Shown piece after piece: positions 1,944-28,485 of a stretch of DNA of 32,000 nt (positions are counted from its first letter, which is position 1; each line of letters opens with the position of its first letter). A model generated the notes under the pieces. That model had not been told where the DNA came from. It saw only the letters and a list, made by a program, of their open reading frames with translations, and made no database searches. Origin of the DNA: Flavobacteriaceae bacterium. Its GTDB lineage: Bacteria; Bacteroidota; Bacteroidia; Flavobacteriales; Flavobacteriaceae. Both the position numbers and the translations under genes were made by a program. The stretch spans positions 1,410,001 to 1,442,000 of the forward strand of contig OZ245049.1 in assembly GCA_965224465.1 (NCBI GenBank), given 5' to 3'.

Positions 1944-2015
1944 CACCAATTACAATCCAAAATAACCGATATAAATAGGTTGTTTTTAAACCGTCACTTG
2001 GAAATGTATTTGGTA
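1944..2015 (+). repeat. Copy A (72 bp, short form) of the dispersed hairpin repeat family (MITE-like)
   Basis: Sequence CACCAATTACAATCCAAAATAACCGATATAAATAG..TTTTTAAACCGTCACTTGGAAATGTATTTGGTA. I count 66/74 identical positions (one flanking nt each side included) against copy C at 16630..16701. The termini are imperfect inverted repeats. It lies in the convergent spacer between thrC and the aminopeptidase gene. The flanking trinucleotides are CAA/TAA. Boundaries are +/-2 nt. Confidence 0.85.
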
Positions 2016-2040
2016 TAAGATTTCTCAACAGCGACGAATA

Positions 2041-2074
2041 AAAAAGGCTGCGATTTAATAATCCTAGCCTTTTA
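2041..2074. terminator. Bidirectional terminator-like hairpin between convergent thrC and the aminopeptidase gene
   Basis: AGGCTGCGATT-taat-AATCCTAGCCT, 11-nt arms with 2 internal mismatches, flanked by an A-run on the left and a T-run on the right. Confidence 0.55.
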
Positions 2075-2129
2075 TTTATGAAATTTAATCTTTTATGATC
2101 TCTGCAAACCGCCTACTGCAAACTGCATA

Positions 2130-3599
2130 TTAATCCAACAAAGGCAAGACAAATCCATCCAACACACTCGGTTTTTCCATCATATTCTCGATAGCTTCTG
2201 ACGATCTAGGAGCCGCTTCGGACAAATTGACGGGACCTTTTTTTGTAATTAATATATCGTCTTCTATCCGCACAGCAATCCCCCACCATTTTGGATCACA
2301 AGGGCTATTATACGGAATATAAATTCCAGGTTCTACAGTAATCACTTGGTTTTCCTTAAAAGAACCAAACAAGCCAGTGTCATGGACATCTAAACCAATA
2401 TAATGAGAAGAACCATGAGGGAAATACTGACGAGAATCTTCGCTGTTTTTAATAATTCCTAATTTAACCAAGCCTTTTGAGATGATAGCCCTTCCCGCTT
2501 TATCAGGTGCAGAAAACTCATTTCCCACTTTTACTTTTGCAATCCCTGCTGTTTGAGCTTTGTAAACCAAATCATAAATTAGTTTCTGTTCTTTAGTGAA
2601 TTTTCCACTTGAAGGAATCGTACGTGTAACATCCGCTGTATACCCATGGTATTCCGCACCTAGATCCATCAGTACCAATTGGTTTTTTATATTGGTTTTA
2701 TTATTTTCAATATAGTGCAGCACACATCCATTACTCCCAGCTCCAACAATGGATGGATACCCTTCATACTCGGCGCCATACTTTTTATAAACAAATTCGT
2801 GAATCCCCTGCACTTCAGTTTCTGACATTCCTTCGTGCATGGCTTTCATAATTTCGATCTGACCAATCGCCGATATTCTAACTGCCTTTGTTAATAAAAC
2901 CAATTCTTCTTTTGTTTTGATCTCGCGCAATGCTGCCATAAACTGCGGCAACCAATCACTATTTATTTTTTCAAGTTTCTTTATTTTCGGTCGGTCAACT
3001 TCCTTGTATCTTGCGGACTCCATAACAGCACTTAACATCTGTTTAAAACCATGGATTAAATCATATAAGTCCACTGCATCACTTGTATTTCTAACATCAT
3101 TTTGAAACCCTTTAAACAGAATTTTATCAAACCTATTAAAATCAATCATGCCTTCTAAAAAATCATAACCAGTAAGTGCCAATTTAAAATCTAATTCCTT
3201 CAATACCCCTTCCACTCCCATACGTTCACCCAGCCACAATTCTTTTTGAGCATCTTTTTGCTGAACAATCATCAATTCATTTACACGCATTCCGTGTATC
3301 AATTGCAGCTCAGAAAAAACCAATAACATTGTATGTGGCTCTTTATAGCCCGTCAAATAATAAAAATCAGGATCTTGATGGTATCTATATTCCACATCAT
3401 TAGACCTATTACGAATGGGATTTGCAAAAAAGACTGCTACTGAATTATCAGGTAACAAGTCACGCAAAGCGGATCTTCTTTTTGAATGAAAATCTGCAGT
3501 GAGATAATCTGTAGGTTTGTGTTTGTTTTGTCCTAAACCTCCATAAGTAAAGATCATAGACAATAGAATTGACAGTATATATTTCATTTCTTTATACAA
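2130..3599 (-). CDS. Xaa-Pro aminopeptidase / M24B-family metallopeptidase, exported
   Basis: 489 aa. It has M24 metal-ligand blocks (LMDLGAEYHGYTADVTRT, HYIGLDVHD, VEPGIY, RIEDD) after an aminopeptidase-P N-terminal region. A hydrophobic signal peptide is present. An alternative ATG at 3587 gives MKYILSILLSMIF. Confidence 0.85.
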   Translation of the reverse strand: MYKEMKYILSILLSMIFTYGGLGQNKHKPTDYLTADFHSKRRSALRDLLPDNSVAVFFANPIRNRSNDVEYRYHQDPDFYYLTGYKEPHTMLLVFSELQLIHGMRVNELMIVQQKDAQKELWLGERMGVEGVLKELDFKLALTGYDFLEGMIDFNRFDKILFKGFQNDVRNTSDAVDLYDLIHGFKQMLSAVMESARYKEVDRPKIKKLEKINSDWLPQFMAALREIKTKEELVLLTKAVRISAIGQIEIMKAMHEGMSETEVQGIHEFVYKKYGAEYEGYPSIVGAGSNGCVLHYIENNKTNIKNQLVLMDLGAEYHGYTADVTRTIPSSGKFTKEQKLIYDLVYKAQTAGIAKVKVGNEFSAPDKAGRAIISKGLVKLGIIKNSEDSRQYFPHGSSHYIGLDVHDTGLFGSFKENQVITVEPGIYIPYNSPCDPKWWGIAVRIEDDILITKKGPVNLSEAAPRSSEAIENMMEKPSVLDGFVLPLLD

Positions 3600-3722
3600 T
3601 TGATAACCTTCAAATATACATTATTTTATTTCTATATAATTTCTACTGAAATTTGATCTAACAAAAGGTATTTTCGAATCAATACCAGTTAAATTAGTAC
3701 AAAAACTCTGAACAATATTTAA

Positions 3723-3730
3723 TACATTTG
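3723..3730 (+). promoter_or_regulatory. Candidate Bacteroidetes -7 promoter box for gcvT
   Basis: TACATTTG matches the TAnnTTTG consensus and ends 16 nt upstream of the gcvT ATG. I saw no clear -33 TTG. Confidence 0.3.
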
Positions 3731-3746
3731 TGAAAAACTAAATTAG

Positions 3747-4829
3747 ATGAAAAACACAGCTTTAACAGATATTCACATAAAACTAGGAGCAAAAATAGTT
3801 CCTTTTGCTGGGTATAACATGCCCGTACAATACGAAGGTATAAATGCAGAACATGAAACCGTACGTAATGGCGTAGGTGTTTTTGATGTTTCTCACATGG
3901 GAGAATTCTTTTTAAAAGGAGAAAACGCCCTTGCTTTGATTCAGAAAATCACCACCAATGATGCTTCTGTTTTATTTGACGGAAAAGTACAGTACAGCTG
4001 TATGACGAATAATGAAGGAGGAATTGTGGATGATCTATTAGTCTATCGCATTAAATCTGACGCGTATTTATTGGTCGTAAATGCTTCTAATATAGAGAAA
4101 GATTGGAATTGGATAGCACAACACAACGATTTAGGTGTGGAAATCACAGACCGTTCTGATGAATATTCTTTATTAGCAGTTCAAGGACCAGATGCGGATG
4201 AGGTGTTACAGAAACTAACAGAAGTAAATCTTTTCAAAATGGTGTATTACACATTTGAAATTGGGAAATTTGCAGGAGTGGATGATGTTATAATCTCAAA
4301 AACAGGATATACAGGTTCAGGTGGTTTTGAAATCTATTTCAAAAATAAAAATGCAGTTGCTATTTGGAATGCGATATTTGAAGCAGGTACTGATTTCGGG
4401 ATCAAACCGATTGGACTGGCTGCTCGCGACACTTTGCGATTAGAAATGGGGTTCTGTTTGTATGGAAATGATTTAAGTGATACTACTTCTCCTATTGAAG
4501 CAGGACTTGGATGGATTACCAAATTCACTAAGGACTTTGTGAATTCTGAAGAAATTAAACGCCACAAAGAAGAAGGTGTTTCTCGCAGATTGGTAGCCTT
4601 TGAATTAACAGAAAAAGGAATTCCTAGACAAGGATACCCTATCTTAAACGAAAACGGTGAAGAAATAGGTGTCGTTACCTCTGGAACCATGTCTCCTTCT
4701 CTAAAAAAAGGAATCGGAATGGGCTATGTAAAAAAAGGAAATACAAAAAAAGACACCGAACTTTTAATTCAAGTTCGTAAGAAAACATTAAAAGCAACTG
4801 TTATAAAATTACCTTTTTACAAAGGATAA
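3747..4829 (+). CDS. gcvT: Glycine cleavage system aminomethyltransferase (T protein)
   Basis: 360 aa. GcvT family blocks [20 protein letters not shown] and [11 protein letters not shown] are present, and length and organisation are typical. Confidence 0.93.
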
Positions 4830-4911
4830 AATATTACCTTCTATAAAAACAAATAACCTCGACCCAAAGGCACGAGATTTGCTTTTGAAAGAACACGCTC
4901 TTTTATAGAAC

Positions 4912-4945
4912 TTAACCCCTTAATAAAGTTAACCCCTTAATAAAG
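4912..4945. repeat. Perfect tandem duplication of a 17-mer (TTAACCCCTTAATAAAG x2, then TTAA) in the gcvT 3' UTR
   Basis: Units at 4912..4928 and 4929..4945 are identical. A 15/17 related copy, TTAACCCCTAAATAAAA, lies at 5709..5725 just upstream of the rmuC ATG. Confidence 0.8.
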
Positions 4946-4954
4946 TTAAAAAAG

Positions 4955-4984
4955 GTTTTTGAATTCTTCAAAAACTTTTTTTTT
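4955..4984 (+). terminator. Rho-independent terminator of gcvT
   Basis: GTTTTTGAA-ttc-TTCAAAAAC is a perfect 9-bp stem followed by a run of nine T and preceded by an A-run. Confidence 0.8.
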
Positions 4985-5002
4985 ATGATTTTATTTAGCG
5001 AA

Positions 5003-5120
5003 TACCAACTACATTACCAAGTGGCGGTTTAGAAATAGAATTATTTTTTGTTCTGTTTTTCAACAACACTAGAACATAAAACAAACTATTTATATAGGTC
5101 ATTTTGAATTTCAATTGGTA
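5003..5120 (-). repeat. Copy B (118 bp, medium form, inverted orientation) of the hairpin repeat family
   Basis: Its reverse complement reads TACCAATTGAAATTCAAAATGACCTATATAAATAGTTTGTTTTATGTTCTAGTGTTGTTGAAAAACAGAAC|AAAAAATAATTCTATTTCTAAACCGCCACTTGGTAATGTAGTTGGTA. This equals the long form minus the central ~41-bp module. It overlaps the last codons and the stop of the acyltransferase gene. Flanks are GAA/TAA. Confidence 0.85.
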
Positions 5121-5659
5121 TAAAACCTTTCTGGGTGTTTCCCTTTCATACCTTTAAAAAAATCATAAAACACTTTAAAATCTTTTTCTTTATCATCGGT
5201 GATATTGTAAGGAGCTGATAGAACAACTTTCTTATTCCCAAAATCCAATCCGATCATTATTACAGGAACGTTTGCACCTTTGGCTATATAATAAAATCCT
5301 GTTTTCCATTGAACAACTTTCTTTCGAGTTCCTTCCGGAGCTAAAGCCAATATAAAGTGTTCTTTTGAATTAAAAATAGCTACAATTGCATCTACTAAAT
5401 TTGCACTTTTTGACCTATCTACTGGAGTTCCTCCAAGTGCTTTAAAAATAAAACCAAAAGGAGACTTAAAGATAGATTCTTTTCCAATAAAATTAGCTGG
5501 AAATCCACAAACCCATTTGGTAAAAATACCAACAGGAAAATCTTGCCAACTGGTATGGGGCGCAGCTATTATGATACATTTTTTTATATGATTTGGAATT
5601 GTGTTTTCTATTTTCCATCCACAAACACGGAGAAAAAGGAACTTTGCGATATATTGCAT
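5111..5659 (-). CDS. 1-acyl-sn-glycerol-3-phosphate acyltransferase-like protein (small PlsC family)
   Basis: It has the HX4D acyltransferase motif (PHTSWQD) and the APEGTRK block. I prefer the ATG at 5659 (MQYIAKFLF) to the GTG at 5689 used by the ORF track. The final codons (Y)TN and the TGA stop fall inside repeat copy B. Confidence 0.75.
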   Translation of the reverse strand: MQYIAKFLFLRVCGWKIENTIPNHIKKCIIIAAPHTSWQDFPVGIFTKWVCGFPANFIGKESIFKSPFGFIFKALGGTPVDRSKSANLVDAIVAIFNSKEHFILALAPEGTRKKVVQWKTGFYYIAKGANVPVIMIGLDFGNKKVVLSAPYNITDDKEKDFKVFYDFFKGMKGKHPERFYTN

Positions 5660-5729
5660 GATATAAATATGAGGAATTGATATTTCCACAAATATAAAAA
5701 TCTTATTTTTAACCCCTAAATAAAATCTT

Positions 5730-7058
5730 ATGAATCACGAATTACTTTTGATAATTATTGGATGCTTGGGCTTGCTGTTTGGCTTTATCATAGGAAAACT
5801 AGTTACTTCTAATACGCTTAACAAAAAGGTTTTCAAGTATAAAGAGCAAATAAAAAACCTTGAAAAAGAACAAACAATAGTCAAAGAACAGGTCCGAAGT
5901 ATTTCTTTTGAAAAAGACAACGAAGCAACGCTCAAAAAACAATTTGAAATTGAATGCGTCATTAAAAACGAAGAATTAAAGAACATACGTGAAAAATTAA
6001 AAAACAACAAAACAGAAGTTAAAGAATTACAGGAAAAATTCACTCTTCAATTCGAATTATTAGCCAACAAAATACTAGAAGAAAAATCCAGTAAATTCAC
6101 AGCACAAAATCAAGAAAATATTAAATCTATCTTGGCTCCTTTACAAGAAAAAATACAACATTTTGAAAAAAAGGTAGAAGACACACATAAAGATTCCATT
6201 GACAGGCATGCTGCATTAAGACAGCAAATAATAGGACTGGCAGAATTGAATAAGAAAATAAGTACGGAAGCGTTGAACCTCACCAGGGCATTAAAAGGAG
6301 ACAGTAAGACTCAAGGAAACTGGGGAGAATTAATATTAGAACGAGTCTTAGAAAAATCTGGATTGGAAAAAGGCAGAGAATACGAGCTAGAAAAAAGTTT
6401 TACTGTACATAGAGAAAACAAAACAAGATTGCGACCAGATGTAATTATCTACCTTCCAGATCAAAAAAAAATGATCATAGACTCTAAGGTATCCTTAACA
6501 GCTTATGAGCAATATGTAAATGCAGAAACAGAAGAAGACCAGGCAATGCATCTAAAAAACCATCTCATCTCTATAAACAGACATGTAAATCAATTGAGTG
6601 CCAAAAAATACGAAACTTTATACGACATAGAATCACCAGATTTTGTACTCTTATTTGTTCCTGTTGAACCCGCATTTGCCATCGCCATAAATGCCGACAA
6701 TCAATTGTACAATAAAGCCTTTGAAAAAAACATTGTAATTGTAACCCCTAGCACCCTTCTCGCCACACTTAGAACCATTGACAGCATGTGGAACAACGAA
6801 AAACAACAGAGAAATGCAATAGAAATAGCGAGACAAGCAGGAGCGCTTTATGATAAATTCGAAGGACTTTATCAAGATTTGAGTAACATTGGAAAAAAAC
6901 TAGAAGGAGTAAAAATTGATTATGACAAAGCTATAAATAAATTATCCGAAGGACGTGGAAACCTAATTTCAAGCGTACAAAAACTAAAAAGCTTAGGAGC
7001 TAAAGCAAAAAAGTCACTTCCACCAAATACAATATCAAGAGCAAGAGAAGACAAATAA
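5730..7058 (+). CDS. rmuC: DNA recombination protein RmuC
   Basis: 442 aa. It has an N-terminal TM segment, a long coiled-coil and the RmuC nuclease-like core (GNWGELILERVLEKSGL, RPDVIIYLP, IDSKVSL). Confidence 0.9.
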   Translation: MNHELLLIIIGCLGLLFGFIIGKLVTSNTLNKKVFKYKEQIKNLEKEQTIVKEQVRSISFEKDNEATLKKQFEIECVIKNEELKNIREKLKNNKTEVKELQEKFTLQFELLANKILEEKSSKFTAQNQENIKSILAPLQEKIQHFEKKVEDTHKDSIDRHAALRQQIIGLAELNKKISTEALNLTRALKGDSKTQGNWGELILERVLEKSGLEKGREYELEKSFTVHRENKTRLRPDVIIYLPDQKKMIIDSKVSLTAYEQYVNAETEEDQAMHLKNHLISINRHVNQLSAKKYETLYDIESPDFVLLFVPVEPAFAIAINADNQLYNKAFEKNIVIVTPSTLLATLRTIDSMWNNEKQQRNAIEIARQAGALYDKFEGLYQDLSNIGKKLEGVKIDYDKAINKLSEGRGNLISSVQKLKSLGAKAKKSLPPNTISRAREDK

Positions 7059-7167
7059 AGTTTGATACCTCATTATTTATACATATTTTCGCAACGGGTT
7101 TACTAGCAACAATTTAATTATTTATATCTCATAGACAACTTCTATGGGATAAATCCGCTTATAGCAT

Positions 7168-7437
7168 ATGGAGAAATACACTACCTTTTTTAAACAACTT
7201 GGTTACACAGATATAGAATGTGTAATTCTAAATTTGTTTTACAACAAAGAACAAACGTCCTATACATTTTTTGAAATAAGAAAAAAAACAGGACTCCCCA
7301 AAAACATATTAAATAGATGTTTAAAACACCTTATCAAAATAAATGAACTCACTTTTATAAAAAATGAAATAAGTCGTAAACGCCTATTTTCAATCTCAGA
7401 AAAAGCAATCTTAAAAAGTAAATTAGCTGATTATTAA
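7168..7437 (+). CDS. Small winged-helix (TrmB/MarR-like) DNA-binding protein, hypothetical
   Basis: 89 aa. The pattern LGYTDIECVILNLF..YTFFEIRKKTGLPKNILNRCLKHL resembles the TrmB/MarR N-terminal HTH. The gene is isolated in a very AT-rich, otherwise non-coding 0.8-kb stretch, so the coding status itself is only moderately supported. Confidence 0.45.
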   Translation: MEKYTTFFKQLGYTDIECVILNLFYNKEQTSYTFFEIRKKTGLPKNILNRCLKHLIKINELTFIKNEISRKRLFSISEKAILKSKLADY

Positions 7438-7488
7438 ATAGACCGTAAATAACTAAATTAAAAACCTTAAGCAACAAAAAAAGCACTA

Positions 7489-7502
7489 CACCAATAACAC
7501 TC
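7489..7502 (+). repeat. Possible solo left-end fragment of the hairpin repeat family
   Basis: ACACCAATAACACTC (7488..7502) matches the left end of copy F (ACACCAATTACACTC) at 14/15 positions. No matching right end is recognisable nearby. Confidence 0.3.
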
Positions 7503-7878
7503 AGATCATTACTTAAGGGAATTCTAACCAATTAAAAAAATCTTCATTTAAGTACCTTATATTTTCAACTAAAAGATTCACACCCCTAGCATCCTAAATA
7601 TAAAATTATTTTAAGCCATTTCTTACAAGAACGATGGAGTATTGACACGCCTAAATTTTAAGGACAAACGCGTCCTCTTCGTTTCAAAAGAAATAAATAT
7701 TTTCTATAAACTGCACTATACAACAGTAGAAATCTAAATAACAGAACATATAGCTAATCATGTAATTTACATTTATTATAACGTGAATTACACCTATAAA
7801 AACGCAAAAAATATTAGCTTAGTCGGAACTGTTATATATTTATATAAAACTCACAATAAATTAGTGATTTTTATATTT

Positions 7879-9564
7879 TTATTCAACAATACCATCACCA
7901 AGAACAAAATCCACATTCATACTTGCAGGCAATCTTCCTAAAGATTTTCCGTCTCCAAACATAATAGCTACAACATTTTTCTGAAAAACAGCACTGTTTT
8001 CGTAAGCAATAAATACAGATTTCACTTCTAAAAAAGAAACATTACGAATGGCATACAAACTGGAGAAGGAAACAAAAGAAACCTTATTTTCTTGGGCGAT
8101 TTTTTGAATCCAACGCGCCGTATTTAAAGAAACCTCTTTTGTTAGTCTATAATTCTTGCGATGATATGAGACAATCACTTTATCAAACTTTTTTAATTTT
8201 TTCAATAATACAGCAATATTTTTTTCGTTAAACACCTCAAGGTCTACTCTCAATTTCAATTGATTTAAAAAAACATCATTCGTACCATTTCCCAATTTTA
8301 CATAAGCGATTTTTTCTGAATTCCCAGTCAAAAACGGAATGTTTTGATCTTCGTTTTTCAGTAAAGTAATTGCTTTTAAACTCAAAGACTCTTTAATTTT
8401 TTGGTTAGACACATCGTTTAAGTCATTTACCAAGTTATCTGTAATCACTGGAGTATATTTCTCTAAACCTAACTTATACTTAGCATTCAGTATTTTTTTA
8501 ACAGAATGCGCCAACCTCTCTTCTGATATTAACTTATCAGTATAGGCTTTTAGGATCAATTTTATAGCCTTTGGTGGATTTTCTGAAAACAACAATACAT
8601 CATTCCCTGCCATAAAAGCAGCTAAATCTATATCTCCTGGTTGCTTAAAATTAGCAGCACCTTTCATATTAAGAGCATCGGTAAAAATCAAGCCTTTATA
8701 TTTCAACTTGTTCTGAAGTAATTCCGTTACAATCGCATAAGATAAAGAAGAGGGCAGTCCATCCTGTGTTTCCAAACTCGGTACATTCAAATGCGCCACC
8801 ATAACACTTGCTACTCCATAATCAAACAATTGTTTAAAAGGGTACAATTCTATACTATCAATTCTTTTAGCGTCAAACCGAATTGTAGGTAAGGTTTTAT
8901 GAGAATCAGAATGTGTATCTCCATGCCCTGGGAAATGTTTTACACATGCAAGTACACCTGTAGATTCCATTCCTTTGACAAAAGCCAATGCTTTATCTGT
9001 AACTAATTGGCGTTCCTCACCGTAAGACCTCACACCAATAATTGGATTTTGAGGATTGGTATTTATATCCACTACAGGAGCAAAGTTAACATGTATCCCT
9101 AGGCGCTTACAGTTTTCACCCTGTTGCTTTCCTAATTTTTGAATCAAGTTGTTATCCGAAATAGCACCCAACGTCATGTTATACGGAAAACGCACAGTAC
9201 TATCCAATCTCATTTTCAAACCCCATTCGGCATCGATACCAATTAACATAGGTATTTTGGAAATAGCCTGTAATGTATTAGTCATACGAGCCTGTCTTAC
9301 AGGGCCACCTTGAAAAAAACACAAACCACCAATTGCCTGCTCTTTCACAAGCATTTTCAAATCTTTAATATGTGTAGAATCCCTGTTAGAATAGGCAGCT
9401 ACCATAAATAATTGCCCCACTTTTTCTTTTAAACTCATTGCCTTATACACGCTATCAACCCAAACTTTCTGAGGATTAACTTTGGTGATTTTAACAGTTT
9501 TTTTCTGATTACAGGACACCAAAAACACTAATATTACTACTAGTAATATATTAATTCTACTCAT
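7879..9564 (-). CDS. nagZ: Exported GH3 beta-N-acetylglucosaminidase (NagZ-type) lipoprotein with a C-terminal extension
   Basis: 561 aa. It has a lipoprotein signal (LVFLVSC) and the GH3 fold. The NagZ-diagnostic motif KH(F/I)PG(H/L)GxxxxD(S/T)H is present as KHFPGHGDTHSDSH. About 200 extra C-terminal residues have unclear function. Its start lies 1 nt after the murQ stop, so the two genes form an operon. Confidence 0.85.
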   Translation of the reverse strand: MSRINILLVVILVFLVSCNQKKTVKITKVNPQKVWVDSVYKAMSLKEKVGQLFMVAAYSNRDSTHIKDLKMLVKEQAIGGLCFFQGGPVRQARMTNTLQAISKIPMLIGIDAEWGLKMRLDSTVRFPYNMTLGAISDNNLIQKLGKQQGENCKRLGIHVNFAPVVDINTNPQNPIIGVRSYGEERQLVTDKALAFVKGMESTGVLACVKHFPGHGDTHSDSHKTLPTIRFDAKRIDSIELYPFKQLFDYGVASVMVAHLNVPSLETQDGLPSSLSYAIVTELLQNKLKYKGLIFTDALNMKGAANFKQPGDIDLAAFMAGNDVLLFSENPPKAIKLILKAYTDKLISEERLAHSVKKILNAKYKLGLEKYTPVITDNLVNDLNDVSNQKIKESLSLKAITLLKNEDQNIPFLTGNSEKIAYVKLGNGTNDVFLNQLKLRVDLEVFNEKNIAVLLKKLKKFDKVIVSYHRKNYRLTKEVSLNTARWIQKIAQENKVSFVSFSSLYAIRNVSFLEVKSVFIAYENSAVFQKNVVAIMFGDGKSLGRLPASMNVDFVLGDGIVE

Positions 9565-9565
9565 T

Positions 9566-11917: not shown

Positions 11918-11928
11918 CTTTTCTAAAA

Positions 11929-15839: not shown

Positions 15840-16162
15840 ATTATTGTTTTCAACAATCAATAACCTCACCCCAAGAACACAAAGTATACTTTCGAATGTT
15901 TATTTTATTTTTCGAGACTGAGCCCTTGAAAAAGTCAAGCACACATCCTAGCCAATTCCCATAACAATCTCTTTGGCACTAAAAAATGCTGTGAATTAAC
16001 AAGACAATAAAAGTAGTAACAAAACAAAATAGACAAGCCCTTCAGAAAGCTCCTCCTTTTTACTAAAAAACTAGACTACACTAACATACGCCGTATTTAA
16101 CGCATATACAAATTGTTTTTACAACAAAACTAGACTTATAAATAAAGCAATAATTTTACCTA

Positions 16163-16780
16163 ATAAAAACAAAGACATACATCGCTTTATTTAGAGGAAT
16201 TAATGTACGCGAAAAAAAATACAATCAAAATGACTGCGCTCAGAGACACACTTCAAAACAGTATCTTTATAGACGCTCAAACACACATACAATCTGGTAA
16301 TTTAATTTTTAAATCCAACGAGAAAGGTACCTGAATTCTTGAAAAAACACTAGAAACTCTTATTAAAATCAATTTTGGACATGACATTTCCATCCATGTA
16401 TTAACTAAAAAATTACTGGAGAAAATAATTACAAAAAACCAATTCTCACCTTTAAAAGATATTCGTTTTTCAAAAATATACATTTTTTATATAAAAGGCA
16501 CATCCAGTTCATACCTCGCTAAAAAATTTTCGAAAATACAGTTTCAGACGATAAATTCTACATTACTAAAAAGGTTTTTTATGCAAATTACAATCTCAAA
16601 TACAATGCTTCAAAAGCTAAAAACACGTATACCTATTACAATTCAAAATAACCGATATAAATAGTGTATTTTTAAACCGTCACTTGGAAATGTAGTTGGT
16701 AGTACTCTAAAAGAGCATTACAATGCGTAGCAACAACTAGAAACGGGAAAACAAGTCTAATTACAAGAGATAGTAAATAA
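16163..16780 (+). pseudogene. DUF1697-family gene, inactivated (frameshifts, in-frame stop, repeat insertion)
   Basis: Conceptual translation across three frames gives (T)YIALFRGINVRE / KNTIKMTALRDTLQNSIFIDAQTHIQSGNLIFKSNEKGT* / ILEKTLETLIKINFGHDISIHVLT.. / ..VSDDKFYITKKVFYANYNLKYNASKAKNT / [repeat C] / YSKRALQCVATTRNGKTSLITRDSK*. This follows the DUF1697 pattern (YIxLLRGINVGGKNKIxM..TYIQSGNxxF..ATxRNWxT). The lesions are one extra A in the A8 run 16212..16219, an in-frame TGA at 16332..16334, and a frame change in the A6T4 run 16521..16530. There is no ATG at the expected start; ATA at 16163 is a possible remnant. Confidence 0.75.
16630..16701 (+). repeat. Copy C (72 bp, short form) of the hairpin repeat family, inserted in the DUF1697 pseudogene
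   Basis: TACCTATTACAATTCAAAATAACCGATATAAATAG..TTTTTAAACCGTCACTTGGAAATGTAGTTGGTA is bracketed by a perfect GTA/GTA direct repeat (16627..16629 and 16702..16704). Confidence 0.85.
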
Positions 16781-16816
16781 CAATTAATTATATCTCCCTG
16801 CAAGAAAACCTTGCAA

Positions 16817-20606: not shown

Positions 20607-20675
20607 ATCCTAGGCTATAATTGTTTTAAAATCATTAGAAATAATGTAACTTTACACTCAAATAAATTTACACTC

Positions 20676-22133
20676 ATGAGTACGGAAATAAGAAATCTTG
20701 AACCCAAATCTTTATGGAATCATTTTGCAGACCTAAATGCAGTTCCAAGAGGTTCTAAAAAAGAAGAACGCGTGATTCAATTCATGGTTGATTTTGGTAA
20801 AAAATTAAATTTAGATACCATTGTAGACCCTGTTGGTAACGTAATCATAAAAAAACCTGCTTCTCCGGGCATGGAAAACAGAGTAACTACAGTACTACAG
20901 TCCCATTTAGATATGGTACACCAAAAAAACTCAGACACTGTTTTTGATTTCGACAAAGAAGGAATCAAGATGTTAATTGATGGAGACTGGGTACGAGCAG
21001 ACGGAACAACTTTAGGAGCTGACAACGGATTAGGAGTGGCATCTATTATGGCTGTATTATCTTCTGACACCATTAAACACCCAGCAATTGAGGCCTTGTT
21101 TACTATTGATGAAGAAACAGGAATGACAGGTGCAAAAGGATTAGAATCTGGATATTTAGATGGGCAAATCTTATTAAATTTAGACACCGAAGATGACAAT
21201 GAGATAGACATAGGATGTGCAGGAGGTATTGATGTTACAGCTACGAGAGTCTATAACGAAGTAAACACTTCAAACAGTGGAACAGGATATGCAATTACTG
21301 TAAAAGGTCTAAGTGGAGGACATTCTGGAATGGACATTCACAGAGGACTAGGAAATGCAAACAAAATAATGAACCGCGTTATCTTCGAAACACAAGAATT
21401 TGTTCGAATCAATTCTATTAACGGTGGAAGTTTAAGAAATGCCATTCCTCGAGAGAGTTTTGCCATCGTAGTAGTTAAAGAAGCAAACGAAGCTAAATTC
21501 TTAAAATTAGTAAAAAAAGTGATTGCCTCAATTCAAAAGGAATTGAAAACCATGGAAGCTGATTTAGAAATAGTAGTAGAAAAAACAGACCGTCCAGAAA
21601 AAATAATGACTTCTATCAGTCAAGAGTCATTAATTAAAACATTGTACGGTGCACAAAACGGAGTCTATCGCTTGAGTCCAGACATGGAAGATTTGGTAGA
21701 AACATCTAACAACATAGCCCGCGTTATTGTAAAAGACGAGTCAATTAAAATAGGATGTTTGACACGTTCATCGGTTGAATCTTCTAAAATAGACTTAGCA
21801 AACACCTTGCGTGCTACTTTTGAATTAGGAGGATTTGAAGTTGAATTTGCAGGTTCGTACCCTGGATGGCAACCAAATACAGGATCACCTATATTAAAAA
21901 CATTAAAAAAAATATACAGTGATTTATTCAATAAGGAAGCAAATGTAGTCGCATGCCATGCAGGATTAGAGTGCGGAATACTAGGCACTAACTACCCAGA
22001 AATGGACATGATTTCTTTTGGACCTACCATTAAAGGAGCTCACTCTCCAGATGAAAGAGCCAGTATAAGTTCTACAAAAAAATATTGGAAATTCTTTTTA
22101 AAAGTACTGGAAGACATTCCTGCAAAAAAATAA
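20676..22133 (+). CDS. pepD: Aminoacyl-histidine dipeptidase (M20C, PepD)
   Basis: 485 aa. It has PepD blocks (SHLDMVHQK, GTTLGADNGLGVA, TIDEETGMTGA, GLECG, GPTIKGAHSPDE). Confidence 0.9.
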   Translation: MSTEIRNLEPKSLWNHFADLNAVPRGSKKEERVIQFMVDFGKKLNLDTIVDPVGNVIIKKPASPGMENRVTTVLQSHLDMVHQKNSDTVFDFDKEGIKMLIDGDWVRADGTTLGADNGLGVASIMAVLSSDTIKHPAIEALFTIDEETGMTGAKGLESGYLDGQILLNLDTEDDNEIDIGCAGGIDVTATRVYNEVNTSNSGTGYAITVKGLSGGHSGMDIHRGLGNANKIMNRVIFETQEFVRINSINGGSLRNAIPRESFAIVVVKEANEAKFLKLVKKVIASIQKELKTMEADLEIVVEKTDRPEKIMTSISQESLIKTLYGAQNGVYRLSPDMEDLVETSNNIARVIVKDESIKIGCLTRSSVESSKIDLANTLRATFELGGFEVEFAGSYPGWQPNTGSPILKTLKKIYSDLFNKEANVVACHAGLECGILGTNYPEMDMISFGPTIKGAHSPDERASISSTKKYWKFFLKVLEDIPAKK

Positions 22134-22146
22134 TTTCACTTATTAT

Positions 22147-22180
22147 AAAGAGCTTGGATCAACATTCAAGCTCTTTTTTT
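22147..22180 (+). terminator. Rho-independent terminator of pepD
   Basis: GAGCTTG (22150..22156) - 10-nt loop - CAAGCTC (22167..22173), followed by seven T and preceded by AAA. Confidence 0.8.
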
Positions 22181-22197
22181 ATATTGTTAACAAATTA

Positions 22198-22355
22198 CAC
22201 CAATTACAATCCAAAATGACCGATCTAAAAAGTTTGTTTTACGTTCTAGCGTAGTTGAAAAACAGAACCATAGCAAGGCTATCGTAAGATTTTCCACCTA
22301 GCTAAAACAAAAACGAATTCCATTTCTAAACCATCACTTGGAAATGTATTTGATA
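22198..22355 (+). repeat. Copy D (158 bp, long form) of the hairpin repeat family
   Basis: It has both family termini plus arm and central modules (..GTTTTACGTTCTAGCGTAGTTGAAAAACAGAACCATAGCAAGGCTATCGTAAGATTTTCCACCTAGCTAAAAC..). A perfect TTA/TTA direct repeat flanks it (22195..22197 and 22356..22358). It lies between the pepD terminator and parA. Confidence 0.85.
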
Positions 22356-22415
22356 TTAGACTTTTATAAATCATTTTTAATTGTATTTTTACGACACAAA
22401 TAAATAATTTTTTTC

Positions 22416-23180
22416 ATGGGTAAAATAATCGCCATAGCCAATCAAAAAGGTGGAGTTGGTAAAACCACAACAACTGTAAATTTAGCTGCTGCACTTGGTG
22501 TTTTAGAAAAGAAAGTTTTATTAATCGATGCCGACCCCCAAGCCAACGCCTCTTCAGGTTTAGGTATTGATGTTGATAGTGTTGAGCAAGGAACTTATGA
22601 AATTCTAGAACATACTGTCGCAACTAAAGACACGATCATAAAAACAAGCTCTCCAAATGTGGATTTAATTCCAGCACATATAGACTTGGTAGCCATTGAA
22701 ATAGAATTGGTAGACAAAGAAAACAGAGAATATATGTTACGAGAATCCTTAAAAGAGGTTCGCGATAATTATGATTATATTTTAATTGACTGTGCGCCTT
22801 CTTTAGGTTTGATTACCTTGAACGCCTTGTCTGCTGCCGACTCTGTAATTATACCAATCCAATGTGAATATTTTGCATTAGAAGGCTTAGGTAAATTACT
22901 AAATACTATAAAAAGCATACAAAAAATTCACAATGCAGATTTAGCCATTGAAGGATTGTTATTAACAATGTTTGATTCTCGATTGAGACTTTCAAACCAA
23001 GTAGTAGAAGAGGTAACTAAACACTTTCAAAACATGGTTTTTAAAACCATTATTCAACGAAATGTTCGCCTAAGTGAGGCTCCAAGTTACGGAGAAAGTA
23101 TAATTTCTTACGATGCTACTAGTAAAGGTGCGATAAATTATATTAATTTAGCCAACGAAATATTAAAAAAGAATAAATAA
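22416..23180 (+). CDS. parA: Chromosome partitioning ATPase ParA/Soj
   Basis: 254 aa. It has the deviant Walker A motif KGGVGKTTT and is followed by parB. Confidence 0.93.
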   Translation: MGKIIAIANQKGGVGKTTTTVNLAAALGVLEKKVLLIDADPQANASSGLGIDVDSVEQGTYEILEHTVATKDTIIKTSSPNVDLIPAHIDLVAIEIELVDKENREYMLRESLKEVRDNYDYILIDCAPSLGLITLNALSAADSVIIPIQCEYFALEGLGKLLNTIKSIQKIHNADLAIEGLLLTMFDSRLRLSNQVVEEVTKHFQNMVFKTIIQRNVRLSEAPSYGESIISYDATSKGAINYINLANEILKKNK

Positions 23181-23185
23181 ACAGC

Positions 23186-24085
23186 ATGGCAAAGGCAACA
23201 CGAAAACAAGCTTTAGGAAGAGGATTATCTGCGTTACTAAAAGATCCTAGTAATGAAGTAACTTCTATTCGAGACAAAAATGCAGATAAGGTTGTTGGGA
23301 GTATTATTGAAATAGATTTAGATGATATTGAGGTAAATCCTTTTCAGCCTAGAAGCTATTTTAATGAAGACGCCTTAACAGAACTTGCTCAATCTATTTC
23401 TGAATTAGGAATTATCCAACCCATCACCGTTCGAAAACTCTCTGGAAGTAAATTCCAACTTGTTTCAGGAGAACGTAGATATAGAGCTTCTAAGTTAATT
23501 GGAAACACTACCATCCCTGCATACATTCGTATTGCGAATGATCAAGAAATGCTTGAAATGGCCTTGGTTGAAAACATTCAACGAAAAGATTTAGACCCTA
23601 TAGAAGTTGCCATTTCGTACCAACGATTGATTGAAGAAATCAAACTAACTCAAGAGCAAATGAGCGCAAGAGTCGGTAAAAAGAGATCTACAATCACCAA
23701 TTATTTGCGTTTATTAAAATTAGACCCTATCATTCAAACAGGAATGAGAGACGGTTTTATCTCCATGGGACATGGAAGGGCATTAATTAATATTGAAGAT
23801 ACCGATATTCAATTGGGAATCTATGAAATAATATTAGAACAAAAGTTATCCGTACGTCAAACAGAACAGATTGTAAAAGACACAAAGGAAGGAAAGATAG
23901 GAAACAGTAAAACACCTAAAGACAGTCCAGAAATCCCTTCATTTGTTCAAGACAATATCAAAACATTCAATTCGTTCTTTGGACATAAAATAGACATTAA
24001 AGTTTCTGCAAAAGGAAAAGGAAAAATAACCATTCCTTTTCATTCTCAAGAAGACTTTGAGCGTATTAAAAAATTATTAGAATAG
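23186..24085 (+). CDS. parB: Chromosome partitioning protein ParB/Spo0J
   Basis: 299 aa. It has the ParB box GERRYRASK and an HTH region (QEQMSARVGKKRSTITNYLRLL). Confidence 0.93.
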   Translation: MAKATRKQALGRGLSALLKDPSNEVTSIRDKNADKVVGSIIEIDLDDIEVNPFQPRSYFNEDALTELAQSISELGIIQPITVRKLSGSKFQLVSGERRYRASKLIGNTTIPAYIRIANDQEMLEMALVENIQRKDLDPIEVAISYQRLIEEIKLTQEQMSARVGKKRSTITNYLRLLKLDPIIQTGMRDGFISMGHGRALINIEDTDIQLGIYEIILEQKLSVRQTEQIVKDTKEGKIGNSKTPKDSPEIPSFVQDNIKTFNSFFGHKIDIKVSAKGKGKITIPFHSQEDFERIKKLLE

Positions 24086-24669
24086 TGCAATACAAAAAAA
24101 CATCCATCGTCCTATTTTTATTAATAGGACTTTGTTCTTTAGCAGGGATTGCACAATCAACAGTAAAAACTCCTAAAGACTCTATCAGCACACGTATGTT
24201 GCCAAATACATACAAACCATTGGCACCTGCGAGAGCTGCATTTTACTCTGCCGTACTCCCTGGATTAGGACAGGCTTTTAATGGAAAGTACTGGAAAGTC
24301 CCAATTGTGTATGCAGCACTAGGAACTGCAGTTTACGCATATAGTTTTAACAATACAAATTACAAAAAATACCAAAAAGCGTACAAACAAAGGAAAAACG
24401 GAAAAACAGATCTTTTTGATGGTTTGGACGGTCGCCCTTCACTGTCTCTTGACGCCTTGGAACGCGCACAAAAATCATACAGGAAAGACAGGGATTTATC
24501 CCTACTCGCAGGTGTTGGACTGTACGTATTACAGATAGTTGAAGCGAGTGTAAATGCACATTTATTACAACACAACGTAAATGACAATCTAAGTGTTGGA
24601 CCACAATTTATTTTAGACCCTATTTCTAATAAAACAATTGTTGGTGCGGGATTTAAACTCAAATTTTAG
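24085..24669 (+). CDS. DUF5683-family membrane-associated protein
   Basis: 194 aa. It has a signal/TM segment and the block AAFYSAVLPGLGQAFNGKYWKVPIVY typical of the protein found after parB in Flavobacteriia. Its GTG start overlaps the parB stop (TAGTG). Confidence 0.7.
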   Translation: MQYKKTSIVLFLLIGLCSLAGIAQSTVKTPKDSISTRMLPNTYKPLAPARAAFYSAVLPGLGQAFNGKYWKVPIVYAALGTAVYAYSFNNTNYKKYQKAYKQRKNGKTDLFDGLDGRPSLSLDALERAQKSYRKDRDLSLLAGVGLYVLQIVEASVNAHLLQHNVNDNLSVGPQFILDPISNKTIVGAGFKLKF

Positions 24670-24681
24670 AAACACAATTAA

Positions 24682-24840
24682 TAGCAATTACAATCCAAAA
24701 TGACCGATATAAATAGTTTGTTTTACGTTCTAAGGTTGTTGAAAAACAGAACGATAGCTAAGGATAGCCATCCATTTCCCGCCTAACTAAAACAAAAAAT
24801 AATTCCATTTCTAAAACGTCACTTGGAAATATATTTGATA
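24682..24840 (+). repeat. Copy E (159 bp, long form) of the hairpin repeat family
   Basis: It is collinear with copy D along its whole length. The termini and arms are clearly similar and the central module is more diverged. It starts 12 nt after the DUF5683 stop. Flanks are TAA/TTA. Confidence 0.85.
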
Positions 24841-24899
24841 TTATTACAGAAAAACAAGATTTCTAGGACTAAGAAATCAATAAAAAAGCATACAAGCTG

Positions 24900-25598
24900 A
24901 TGAAAATAGCATTATTAGGATATGGGAAAATGGGTAAAACCATTGAAAAAATAGCCATTAAACGTGGTCACACCATTGTATTAAAAATTGAAGACGATTC
25001 GGAATATGACATCACAAAAGCAGATGTCGCCATAGATTTTAGCATCCCGACAGTAGCCTATAAGAACATCTCTAACTGCCTACAAAATAAGATCCCTGTA
25101 GTTTCGGGAACAACTGGATGGTTGGAAAATTACGAAAAAGCCGTCGCCTTATGTTCTCAACAAAAAGGAGCTTTTATTTACGCCTCCAATTTTAGCTTAG
25201 GAGTCAATATCTTTTTTGAACTCAACAAACAATTGGCAAGAATGATGAAGTCTCTAGATCAATACGACATTTCCTTGGAAGAAATTCACCACATTCAAAA
25301 ACTAGATGAACCAAGTGGAACAGCCATCACTCTTGCGGAAGGAATTATTGAAAACAGCGCTAAAACAAATTGGGTATTGGGAAGCACAAACAAGCAACAA
25401 GAGATAGGAATTGAAGCCATTAGAGAACCCGAAGTACCTGGGACTCACAGTATTTTTTACGAATCGGAAGTAGACAATATCACAATCAAACACACCGCCC
25501 ATAACCGACAAGGCTTTGCTTTAGGCGCCGTTATTGCAGCGGAATGGCTACAAGACAAAACAGGAACATTCACTATGAAAGATGTTTTAGGAATTTAA
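24900..25598 (+). CDS. dapB: 4-hydroxy-tetrahydrodipicolinate reductase
   Basis: 232 aa. It has the N-terminal Rossmann motif (MKIALLGYGKMGK) and the DapB signature EIHHIQKLDEPSGTA. Confidence 0.92.
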   Translation: MKIALLGYGKMGKTIEKIAIKRGHTIVLKIEDDSEYDITKADVAIDFSIPTVAYKNISNCLQNKIPVVSGTTGWLENYEKAVALCSQQKGAFIYASNFSLGVNIFFELNKQLARMMKSLDQYDISLEEIHHIQKLDEPSGTAITLAEGIIENSAKTNWVLGSTNKQQEIGIEAIREPEVPGTHSIFYESEVDNITIKHTAHNRQGFALGAVIAAEWLQDKTGTFTMKDVLGI

Positions 25599-25662
25599 CA
25601 CCTTTATAACAGATTTTCCAAACTTTTTTTTTCACCTTTGAATTCACTATAAGCACAATATT

Positions 25663-27207
25663 ATGACATTATCAGCATGGTTTATCTTTTTTCTAATCAT
25701 CCAAATAATCCATTTCCTAGGTACTTGGAAATTGTATGTAAAAGCAGGTAAAAAAGCATGGGAAGCAGCAATTCCTGTATACAATGCCATTGTATTAATG
25801 GATATACTTAAGAGACCTAAATGGTGGACTATTTTACTATTTATCCCAATAATTAATCTATTAATGTATCCTGTTGTTTGGATAGAAACAGCAAGAAGTT
25901 ATGGGAAAAACACACGTATTGACGGTTTTTTATCCGTGGCTCTATTAGGGTTTTACAGCTATTATATTAGTTATGCTACCAAAGCAGTATACGTAAAAGA
26001 CAGAAGTTTAACTTCAAAATCACAAGTAGGAGAATGGCTAAGTTCTATTGTATTTGCTATAATTGCTGCTACCTTGGTTCACACCTACGTAATGCAGCCC
26101 TATACAATCCCAACCTCATCATTAGAAAAATCTTTATTAGTAGGAGATTTCTTATTTGTGAGTAAGTTTCATTACGGAGCAAGAACTCCCATGACAACAA
26201 TAGCAGCTCCAATGGTACATGACTCTCTTCCATTAATTGGAACAAAATCATACCTCAAAAAACCACAACTCCCTTATTTTAGATTTCCCGGTTTTCAAGA
26301 CATCAAACGCAACGAAATCGTCGTATTCAGTTGGCCTGTAGATACCGTTCGATTTTTCAGAGATCACTCTGGAATACATATTGATAAACCTATTGATAAA
26401 AAATCAAATTACGTCAAACGTTGTGTAGGAATCCCTGGGGACTCATTAGCTGTTATAAACGGATATGTGTATATAAACGGAAAGAGAACCAAGTTACCTT
26501 ACCGTGCCAAAACTCAATACCTTCATGAAGTTGTTGCTACATCAGATTTTAACCCGTACAGTTTTACTTCTCGCTATGAATCTACCGAATTAGGAAGAAA
26601 CAAAAACGGAAACTACACGGTAAATCTAACAGATGCCAATGCTGCAAAATTACGTAACAATCCGTCTATAAAAAGTGTAACCAAACAAAATACTCCTGCT
26701 GGAATTTTTGATAAAATCATTTTTCCTCACTCCCCTAAATACCCTTGGAGTTACGATAATTTTGGTCCAATATACATTCCCGAAGAAGGAAAAACAGTGG
26801 CTTTAACACCTGCAAGCATTCCTTTTTACAAAAGAATTATCGAAGTCTATGAAAACAACAATCTAACCATTGATGGAGACACGTATTATATCAATGGAAA
26901 AGCTGCAACAACATACACCTTTAAACAAGATTACTATTGGATGATGGGTGATAACCGACACAATTCGGAAGATGCGAGAGCATGGGGATATGTCCCTTTC
27001 GATCATATTGTTGGAAAACCTGTATTTATATGGTTTAGCTGGGACAGTACTGCAAAAGGTTTGGCAAATAAAGTACGTTGGGACCGTGTATTTACCACCG
27101 TTCATGGCGAAGGAAAACCCTATTCATATATCTATGTATTCTTAGGCATATTGGCTTTATACTTTATTGGAAGTACAATTATCAAGCGAAGAAAAGAAGA
27201 AAACTAA
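25663..27207 (+). CDS. lepB: Signal peptidase I (S26) with an N-terminal multi-TM extension
   Basis: 514 aa. S26 boxes are present (SSLEKSLLVGD, YVKRCVGIPGD, GDNRHNSEDAR). The N-terminal ~110 aa hydrophobic module is the one commonly fused to the Bacteroidetes enzyme. Confidence 0.88.
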   Translation: MTLSAWFIFFLIIQIIHFLGTWKLYVKAGKKAWEAAIPVYNAIVLMDILKRPKWWTILLFIPIINLLMYPVVWIETARSYGKNTRIDGFLSVALLGFYSYYISYATKAVYVKDRSLTSKSQVGEWLSSIVFAIIAATLVHTYVMQPYTIPTSSLEKSLLVGDFLFVSKFHYGARTPMTTIAAPMVHDSLPLIGTKSYLKKPQLPYFRFPGFQDIKRNEIVVFSWPVDTVRFFRDHSGIHIDKPIDKKSNYVKRCVGIPGDSLAVINGYVYINGKRTKLPYRAKTQYLHEVVATSDFNPYSFTSRYESTELGRNKNGNYTVNLTDANAAKLRNNPSIKSVTKQNTPAGIFDKIIFPHSPKYPWSYDNFGPIYIPEEGKTVALTPASIPFYKRIIEVYENNNLTIDGDTYYINGKAATTYTFKQDYYWMMGDNRHNSEDARAWGYVPFDHIVGKPVFIWFSWDSTAKGLANKVRWDRVFTTVHGEGKPYSYIYVFLGILALYFIGSTIIKRRKEEN

Positions 27208-27208
27208 G

Positions 27209-27844
27209 ATGTCGAAAACACATCTTTTATATCCAGGATATTTAGGGTCGATTGCCCACTACGCTGTAGTGGCGCAATCTGATGCTATTATTTTTGAAAC
27301 CGCGAGTAACTTTATAAAACAAAGCTATCTTACCCGTTGCTATATTGCAACTGCAAGCGGAAAGCAGGCGCTTAGCATTCCTGTACTTCGCCCAAAAGAA
27401 AAGGGAAAACAACGTTTAAAAGATGTACGGATAGATTACAGAAATAACTGGCAACAAACACACCTACGAAGCATTCAAACAGCCTATAGATCCTCGCCGT
27501 TCTATGAATTTTATGAAGATGATTTACTACCTCTTTTCAATAAAAACTATACTTTTTTATTAGATTTTAATTTAAAAGCACACGAAATATTAATGGAATG
27601 CCTTCAATTAAATACACCTTCATCTAAAACGAGCGTTTTTGAATTAAATCCACTACAATACAGCGACACACGATTTTTAATTGATGCTAAAAAAGAAATC
27701 TCTGTGGATTTTGATTCTTACTATCAAATTTTTAACGACAAGAATGGCTTTCAAAAAAACCTAAGTATTTTAGACCTTATCTGTATGGAAGGTCCCAATG
27801 CTATTAGTTTTTTAGAACGCATTGATCTATCAAAGTTAAAATAA
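27209..27844 (+). CDS. WbqC-family protein
   Basis: MSKTHLLYPGYLGSIAHYA.., NWQQTHLRSIQTAYRSSPFYEFY and ILDLI resemble WbqC-like proteins. I prefer the ATG at 27209 (1 nt after the lepB stop) to the listed start at 27167, which lies inside lepB. Confidence 0.75.
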   Translation: MSKTHLLYPGYLGSIAHYAVVAQSDAIIFETASNFIKQSYLTRCYIATASGKQALSIPVLRPKEKGKQRLKDVRIDYRNNWQQTHLRSIQTAYRSSPFYEFYEDDLLPLFNKNYTFLLDFNLKAHEILMECLQLNTPSSKTSVFELNPLQYSDTRFLIDAKKEISVDFDSYYQIFNDKNGFQKNLSILDLICMEGPNAISFLERIDLSKLK

Positions 27845-28161
27845 TGGCTTATTTACAGCCAATTATTCATTATAGCATGCACTTTTTAGTGCCAGGGCTT
27901 ATTGCATTTCTGTTTTTTAAAGACTGGAAAAAAGCATGGCTTATTTTAACACTTACCATGTTGGTAGATTTAGATCATTTATTAGCTACTCCAATTTTTG
28001 ATCCAGAGCGATGCAGTATAAATTTCCATCCACTCCACACGTATTATGCTATGGTAATATATGCACTTGGGTTAACTTTTAAAAAAACAAGAATCGTATG
28101 CATAGGGCTTCTTTTTCATATGCTTACTGATTTTATTGACTGTAGCCTATCATTCCCATAA
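27844..28161 (+). CDS. Small integral-membrane protein of unknown function (DUF6122-like)
   Basis: 105 aa with three predicted TM segments and conserved-looking His/Asp residues (HYSMHF, DLDHLL, FHMLTDF). Its start overlaps the WbqC stop (TAATG), suggesting translational coupling. Confidence 0.6.
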   Translation: MAYLQPIIHYSMHFLVPGLIAFLFFKDWKKAWLILTLTMLVDLDHLLATPIFDPERCSINFHPLHTYYAMVIYALGLTFKKTRIVCIGLLFHMLTDFIDCSLSFP

Positions 28162-28316
28162 TTGAAACCCACCTCCCTATTATAAATTATAGTTATTCTA
28201 TTATTAGTTTTATCTATTTCACCTATCTTCGTAGTATCAAAAATAACACACCATAAATCTTTCCCTAAAGGATTTTAATAGGTAGAACGATATAGTTTAT
28301 CCTTAAACTAAAAGAA

Positions 28317-28340
28317 AGCCTCTTGATTCATCAAGAGGCT
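28317..28340. terminator. Hairpin in the convergent DUF6122-like / ettA spacer
   Basis: AGCCTCTTGA-ttca-TCAAGAGGCT is a perfect 10-bp stem. It is A-rich upstream and has only a weak T-tract downstream. Confidence 0.5.
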
Positions 28341-28351
28341 TCCCTATTATA

Positions 28352-28376
28352 TACCTTACAGAAAATAAATTTGGTA
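28352..28376 (+). repeat. 25-bp mini-remnant of the hairpin repeat family (both termini only)
   Basis: TACCTTACAGAAAATAAATTTGGTA retains left-end-like TACCTTACA and right-end-like AAATTTGGTA. Only the TTA at 28377..28379 separates it from copy F. Confidence 0.5.
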
Positions 28377-28379
28377 TTA

Positions 28380-28485
28380 CACCAATTACACTCCAAAACA
28401 ACCGATATAAATAGTTTATTTTATCCTCTATCGTTGTTAAAAAACAATCCTATTTCTAAACCATCACTTGGAAATGTATTTGGTA
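28380..28485 (+). repeat. Copy F (106 bp, medium form) of the hairpin repeat family
   Basis: CACCAATTACACTCCAAAACAACCGATATAAATAGTTTATTTTATCCTCTATCGTTGTTAAAAAACAATCCTATTTCTAAACCATCACTTGGAAATGTATTTGGTA. A perfect TTA/TTA direct repeat flanks it (28377..28379 and 28486..28488). The right-hand TTA is the ettA stop codon (TAA on the minus strand). Confidence 0.85.

Follow-up and report, generated by a model that had tools for sequence, protein, structure and literature searches.

The 32,000-nucleotide stretch analysed here (the window) lies on contig OZ245049.1 of a Flavobacteriaceae bacterium, positions 1,410,001 to 1,442,000, and carries six copies, A to F, of a short palindromic repeat. What is this repeat, and how did it reach six places within 32 kb? 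The family is very probably a gene-less, non-autonomous mobile element, also known as a MITE (miniature inverted-repeat transposable element), with a 3-bp target-site duplication of the form T(T/A)A (TWA). A first-pass annotation of the window had proposed a candidate MITE or a structured RNA, and the MITE interpretation is borne out by empty orthologous sites, copies at unrelated loci, the 3-bp duplication, the lack of an Rfam match, and the lack of covariation. Insertions of this non-coding element, which has terminal inverted repeats, take place at T(T/A)A and duplicate 3 bp. It is present or absent at orthologous sites, is dispersed to unrelated loci, and undergoes deletion in place.

The six copies are recovered by several routes. 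The right end, CACTTGGWAATRTAKTTGRTA, has six matches in the window with no mismatches, against a chance expectation of 0.03. The left end has five matches at no more than three mismatches (chance expectation 0.00), copy B being more diverged, and all six copies are matched when the flanking triplet is added to the left-end pattern. A repeat finder run on the window recovers the same copies in register. Pattern matches, repeat finder, and reading of the sequence reproduce exactly the limits first assigned to each copy (Table 1). Together the copies sum to ~685 bp, or 2.1% of the window, where ~2% had been estimated. The first-pass annotation also spoke of remnants. One exists, a right-end fragment beside copy F. 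It is the seventh place in the window that fits the right-end pattern with TTA added (chance expectation 0.02), and nhmmer with profiles of the ends found no others in the window.

Movement of the element is seen at orthologous sites. The window was compared with syntenic contigs of related North Pond Flavobacteriaceae, whose orthologous proteins are 85-96% identical and whose loci are cited by number (e.g., L055). Copies B, C, D, E, and F each have an empty counterpart in one or more relatives, and most of these empty sites consist of a single TTA or TAA. Site D is the cleanest. L055 reads GTTAACAAATTAGACTTTT, and the window reads GTTAACAAATTA, the 158-bp copy, and TTAGACTTTT; spacer lengths indicate that L056, L060, and L061 have no copy there either. 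At site F, L055 and L056 have nothing more than the remnant of the older right end with one TTA after it, and the window carries the remnant, TTA, copy F, and a second TTA. Site B is empty in L062, L063, and L066, which have one TAA (CTA in L063) where the window has GAA, copy B, and TAA. The spacer at site E is 230 nt long in the window vs. 42-71 nt in relatives, and the empty site of L057 reads TAATTACC, compared with TAA, copy E, and TTATTAC in the window. Site C lies within a gene. The intact DUF1697 protein of L055 matches window positions 16166-16759 (tblastn) and is encoded by an uninterrupted coding sequence with one TTA; the gene is decayed in the window. For copy A, the orthologous spacer of relatives is unalignable to the window. 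The reverse case is observed downstream of the isocitrate lyase (ICL) gene, where L055 and L056 possess a copy and the window has the bare target AAC-TTA-AAATAC. An additional ~92 kb of syntenic DNA from relatives contains zero copies, which points to a local excess of insertions in the genome of the window.

The triplets flanking the window copies are as first described, perfect at C, D, and F and with one mismatch at A, B, and E. The 3-bp duplication also holds over a larger set of 13 copies. Seven have perfect flanks (TTA four times, TAA twice, and GTA once), four have one mismatch, and two have two mismatches. TWA is found on the left of 10/13 copies and on the right of 9/13. The ICL site and sites B, D, E, and F hold TTA or TAA when empty; departures from TWA are GTA/GTA flanking copy C and the CTA that L063 has at site B. 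The orthologous pair in L055 and L056 has flanks TGA/TAA and TAA/TGC, which reconstruct to TAA/TAA. Since the triplet is single in empty sites and GTA/GTA covaries between the two sides, it is a true duplication and not a fixed part of the element.

The duplication bears on a second mode of movement. An HUH/Y1 enzyme can move a hairpin as single-stranded DNA, and it could be one resembling the transposases (RAYT, REP-associated tyrosine transposases) of repetitive extragenic palindromes (REP) or one derived from IS200/IS605. The TTA would then be a fixed recognition tetranucleotide, and no duplication would occur. REP and bacterial interspersed mosaic elements (BIME) with RAYT, or derivatives of IS200/IS605, are 20-40 nt palindromes or like-oriented subterminal hairpins that make no target duplication and use a Y1 transposase. 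The family described here is essentially one hairpin with strand-biased stability, its insertion is site-specific beside T(T/A)A, and copy F is inserted right next to an older end, all of which would suit such an enzyme. An HUH/Y1 enzyme is nevertheless very unlikely. The triplet stands on both sides and varies together (GTA/GTA, TAA/TAA, TTA/TTA), and it occurs once in empty sites. The ends are true terminal inverted repeats of ~35 bp and not two like-oriented subterminal hairpins. Lengths of 72-160 bp far exceed that of a REP unit, and the GTAG-type head of REP is missing. No Y1 transposase gene is found in any locus examined.

Table 1. Coordinates of the repeat copies and related sites. Positions are those of the window unless a locus number is given.
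Feature	Position	Strand	Description
Copy A	1944..2015	+	72 bp, short form, outer arms only; flanks CAA (1941-1943) / TAA (2016-2018)
Copy B	5003..5120	-	118 bp, medium form; + strand flanks GAA (5000-5002) / TAA (5121-5123)
Copy C	16630..16701	+	72 bp, short form; perfect GTA/GTA (16627-16629, 16702-16704); within decayed DUF1697 pseudogene
Copy D	22198..22355	+	158 bp, full-length; perfect TTA/TTA (22195-22197, 22356-22358)
Copy E	24682..24840	+	159 bp, full-length; flanks TAA (24679-24681) / TTA (24841-24843); inside parB-DUF5683-dapB gene string
Remnant of older copy	28361..28376	+	Right end, GAAAATAAATTTGGTA; abuts copy F; common to L055 and L056
Copy F	28380..28485	+	106 bp, medium form; perfect TTA/TTA (28377-28379, 28486-28488)
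Empty target	30410..30412	.	TTA; holds a 160-nt copy in L055 (17518-17677) and a 49-nt copy in L056 (17519-17567)
Stop-codon insertion events	28486-28488; L011 7295-7297; L024 346-348; L055 3796-3798 and 15005-15007		TAA stop codons of adjacent genes

The multiple alignment shows that the complete unit forms one imperfect palindrome, ~160 bp long. It is composed of outer arms of ~35 bp (YACCAATTACAATCCAAAATRACCGATATAAATAG and TTTCTAAACCRYCACTTGGAAATGTATTTGGTA), an inner stem, and a small core hairpin that is richer in G+C. Of ~34 positions in the outer arms, 21-27 pair, and pairing is perfect in the termini TACCAA/TTGGTA. The ends had been described as imperfect inverted repeats and each copy as able to fold into one hairpin, and this agrees with the 16-57 Watson-Crick positions per copy that are counted when one arm is set against the reverse complement of the other. 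Copies contain no open reading frames (ORFs) and are without coding capacity.

Known copies range in size from 49 to 160 bp, with one exception of 194 bp. The medium and short copies are without apical parts of the full palindrome. At the ICL site, one orthologous insertion is 160 nt in L055 vs. 49 nt in L056, and AGAATT and AGGATT, located on opposite arms, border the deletion junction, which indicates slippage in place. The shorter forms (118, 106, 72, 58, and 49 bp) are apical deletions and probably arose in this way, a short repeat of one arm slipping against its counterpart in the other. Copies A and C are at separate loci and possess an identical internal deletion junction. The 72-bp form itself has thus transposed, and the cis requirements for movement therefore lie within ~35 bp at each end. 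The exceptional copy of 194 nt is located in L018 (4828-5021), from genome NORP167. It has two additional internal segments of ~22 and ~12 nt on opposite arms. The region contains Ns, so the extra segments could stem from the assembly or could represent another variant.

Copies outside the window were sought with the right-end pattern in one genome per species, covering 185,579 species. The right end was matched at 20 loci, and the left end is also present at only five. These five true copies belong to metagenome-assembled genomes (MAGs) of North Pond subseafloor Flavobacteriaceae, three in NORP167 and one each in NORP129 and NORP150. The family thus occurs at unrelated housekeeping loci in three related genomes. 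Two metagenome scans gave no true copy: a 28-nt right-end pattern had no match, and a 21-nt pattern gave 29 loci, all chance matches without a left end. A scan of viral sequences gave chance matches only, and BLAST of plasmid and phage collections with copy D gave short irrelevant matches only. With true copies confined to North Pond MAGs and none in the metagenome, viral, plasmid, and phage searches, the family is lineage-restricted. The ParB, GcvT, and ThrC proteins assign the window to Flavobacteriaceae; among named genera, Lutibacter and Tenacibaculum come closest, with no more than 73-80% identity.

Window copies are mutually 82-93% identical. Non-orthologous copies from different genomes reach 97-98% identity (A/L011 and L011/L023), and the orthologous L055/L056 copy is ~82% identical over the common part. 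The pattern fits activity that continued after the lineage split.

A multicopy hairpin may also be a conserved structured RNA, e.g., a small RNA or a hairpin of the 3' untranslated region (UTR) or another cis-regulatory hairpin, that is retained for the action of its transcript and not for mobility. Folding of the family depends on the strand. The strand complementary to the '+' orientation folds much better, at -53.2 vs. -28.9 kcal/mol for copy D, and the alignment consensus gives -37.3 for the complementary strand vs. -20.6 for the '+' orientation. Transition mismatches form G.U pairs more often on the complementary strand (24 vs. 9 pair types, 58 vs. 15 cells), as counted in a palindrome alignment that is blind to mismatch type. 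Several copies also lie in 3' UTRs, between stop codon and terminator.

A structured RNA is, even so, highly improbable. Orthologous sites vary in presence and absence, with target duplication. Compensatory double changes are observed in 0/55 pairs, and the covariation score is 0.129 vs. a shuffle mean of 0.132, both from five full-length sequences and therefore of limited power; every covariation measure equals its shuffle mean. One copy lies within a pseudogene, and another overwrites the end of a coding sequence. Sites D and E are the two that are informative for orientation, and at both the strand that folds better runs antisense to the genes on either side. The whole window has no Rfam match at gathering thresholds, including to the Flavo-1 motif named in the first-pass annotation, and none of relevance at E up to 10. 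The best Rfam 15 match overlapping copy D scores 15 bits vs. a gathering score of 90 bits (E = 2.7). The + strand of the window has more C than G and more A than T, and the sole inverted copy, B, is unbiased (2 vs. 2), so the asymmetry could come from mutational skew. The G.U strand asymmetry may reflect such skew rather than selection.

For the MITE, a transposase encoded elsewhere would bind the terminal inverted repeats. The mover is probably a DDE transposase acting in trans. Insertion at T(T/A)A would proceed via a 3-bp staggered cut, and repair would duplicate the triplet. An IS5/Tourist-type enzyme had been proposed at the outset. The TWA duplication of 3 bp agrees with this and makes the assignment plausible; no full-length insertion sequence (IS) or DDE transposase with these termini was found in the loci and collections searched. 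A DDE enzyme of the IS5 or PIF-Harbinger kind, ISL2- or IS1031-like, can be named tentatively, its one basis being that the duplication is 3 bp and TWA. Elements of the ISL2 and IS1031 groups are present in Bacteroidota. Duplications of 3 bp are typical of canonical Harbinger elements, with which the IS5 family shares a superfamily (PMC12730594).

The transposase of the MITE could instead belong to a family outside IS5/PIF, e.g., IS30 or IS982, which is somewhat unlikely. Members of the IS30 family make 2-3 bp duplications and are attracted to their own inverted repeats. Members of the IS982 family make 3-9 bp duplications, have 'AC' ends, and are common in Bacteroidota. Copy F lies beside an older right end and the same TTA is used twice, which recalls the end-targeting of IS30. 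The termini (Y)ACC...GGT(A) are nearer to the 'AC' ends of IS982 than to the GG/GA of IS5 groups. To our knowledge, a TWA preference is unreported for IS30 or IS982. The duplication of the family described here is constantly 3 bp and strongly TWA, on both sides of the copies and in nearly all empty sites, which is the hallmark of PIF/Harbinger-IS5. An IS982-derived MITE does exist in Bacteroidota (PMC9769881).

Several points weigh against a MITE moved by an IS5-like DDE enzyme. Neither the window, nor ~250 kb of related loci, nor the plasmid and phage collections yielded a transposase or full-length IS with these termini. The window ORFs were all checked and none encodes a transposase, in agreement with the first-pass annotation. 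The neighbours of the copies at five NORP loci, and the genes of every syntenic locus, are housekeeping genes only, again with no transposase. The termini YACC...GGTA look unlike the GG/GA with which most IS5 subgroups end. The 24 vs. 9 G.U strand bias of hairpin transitions is unpredicted by a plain double-strand DDE mechanism. Lastly, at 82-93% identity the window copies show no sign of very recent movement.

Two candidates for a partner were rejected. A 402-aa unannotated ORF beside the L018 copy is SbcD-like. A 2.9-kb insert in L056 has no inverted repeats like those of the element and no family matches. This insert (L056 270-3155) lies between the epimerase and DUF1697 genes, is an insertion relative to L055, and contains ORFs of 300 and 163 aa with no Pfam or NCBIfam match.

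Of 14 independent insertion events, five fall exactly on the TAA stop codon of the adjacent gene (Table 1). These are copy F, the older remnant at the same stop, the copies of L011 and L024, and the L055 remnant at the DcuC stop. The right-hand TTA of copy F is the TAA stop codon of the minus-strand ABC-F gene, and this stop was used twice, by the older remnant and then by F. The 217-nt spacer that received F has ~19 TWA sites. Because the duplicated triplet is the stop codon, the stop is regenerated. A sixth event replaces the end of a gene. Copy B is inserted in a TTA Leu codon, three codons ahead of the original stop (window 5111-5122, minus strand), and the acyltransferase gene (5111-5689, minus strand) now takes its final three codons and its stop from the left end of the copy. 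The C-terminus of the acyltransferase is ..RFYTN* in the window vs. ..KFLAL* at the empty site of L062. Copy A lies between the thrC stop and a shared terminator, and copy D is bordered on one side by the terminator that serves the M20 peptidase gene and on the other by the conserved upstream region of parA.

Stop-codon landings are above naive expectation, which could reflect targeting or survivorship. A TWA target combined with tolerance of such insertions, where the duplication regenerates the stop, would produce them. A more elaborate reading is that the family prefers TAA stops, or TWA beside its own ends or terminators, and that a regenerated stop together with a strand-biased 3' UTR hairpin forms a 'safe-harbour' strategy. 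The hairpin could then add an RNA-level role (transcript stabilisation or processing), and the transposase family would perhaps be one not yet linked to TWA in Bacteroidota. This reading is suggested by the five of 14 events on stops, the stop used twice, the replacement of the last three codons by a sixth event, and the 24 vs. 9 G.U bias; we regard it as improbable.

At the DcuC stop, L055 carries a 5'-truncated copy (3741-3796, right half only) that abuts the stop codon. The window has a TAG stop at this position and no element.

The closest known systems are the Tourist-type MITEs of PIF/Harbinger, e.g., mPing, and the IS5 relatives ISL2 and IS1031. They resemble the family described here in their small non-coding size, terminal inverted repeats, 3-bp T(T/A)A duplication, and tolerated insertions near gene ends, and probably also in dependence on a trans-supplied transposase. 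The YACC...GGTA termini differ from the G-rich ends that Tourist/PIF and most IS5 subgroups have, and the host here is a Flavobacteriaceae bacterium. The enterobacterial repetitive intergenic consensus (ERIC), also known as the intergenic repeat unit (IRU), and the Correia elements of Neisseria are likewise intergenic imperfect palindromes of ~100-160 bp that form one long hairpin. They share indel size classes, frequent co-transcription in 3' UTRs, and a short A+T flanking duplication, but they duplicate TA and not TWA and have no sequence similarity to the family. RNA-processing and promoter roles are experimentally demonstrated for ERIC and Correia, whereas the family described here is known from sequence alone.

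Within the same phylum, MITECca01 of a Cardinium endosymbiont (Bacteroidota; PMC9769881) is also a lineage-specific MITE family, identified by manual curation and absent from close relatives. MITECca01 is ~240 bp and has a parental IS982-family element, ISCca4, with matching inverted repeats (PMC9769881); the full palindrome here is at most 160 bp and no parent was found. A catalogue of Bacteroidota MITEs holds 81,380 distinct elements from 46,051 genomes (PMC11602168). It concerns the same element class and phylum, in which such families are common, and is without mechanism or empty-site analysis. No description of the family was found in the literature. The family thus appears to be undescribed, as set against the literature and not against ISfinder or the PMC11602168 catalogue, and is an ordinary kind of bacterial repeat.

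The family opens no long-standing question, and ~2% of the window is explained without new biology. It provides a clean, documented example from bacteria of a MITE that duplicates TWA, complete with empty sites, size decay in place, and a minimal mobile unit of 72 bp. It is also a marker for a poorly sampled marine/subseafloor Flavobacteriaceae lineage, and the ends of the element are a probe toward its transposase. The stop-codon landings offer a small testable point on the tolerance of insertions by compact genomes.

Two functional features were considered for the copies themselves. The core hairpin has a terminator-like score in one copy only. For the conserved right end, an outward promoter of the Bacteroidetes type (TTTC-19 nt-TGTATTTG) is only an approximate by-eye match to the consensus, and no claim is made for it.

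Window genes are the housekeeping genes of a Flavobacteriaceae chromosome. Among them are thrC, pepP, gcvT, SusC/SusD, parA-parB-DUF5683-dapB-lepB, and the ICL gene. The decayed DUF1697 pseudogene with copy C lies within 15840-16816, and the window lacks the epimerase gene found in L055 between deoR and DUF1697. Near the empty target, two near-identical terminator hairpins (30227-30267 and 30368-30408) are 141 nt apart. In L055 and L056, these hairpins flank a 208-aa gene (no family match) that is missing from the window. The spacer downstream of gcvT has a ~110-nt window-specific stretch (~4833-4950) that is absent from L062, L063, and L066. It includes a tandem repeat at 4912-4949, which is a perfect 17-nt duplication of TTAACCCCTTAATAAAG in 2.2 copies.

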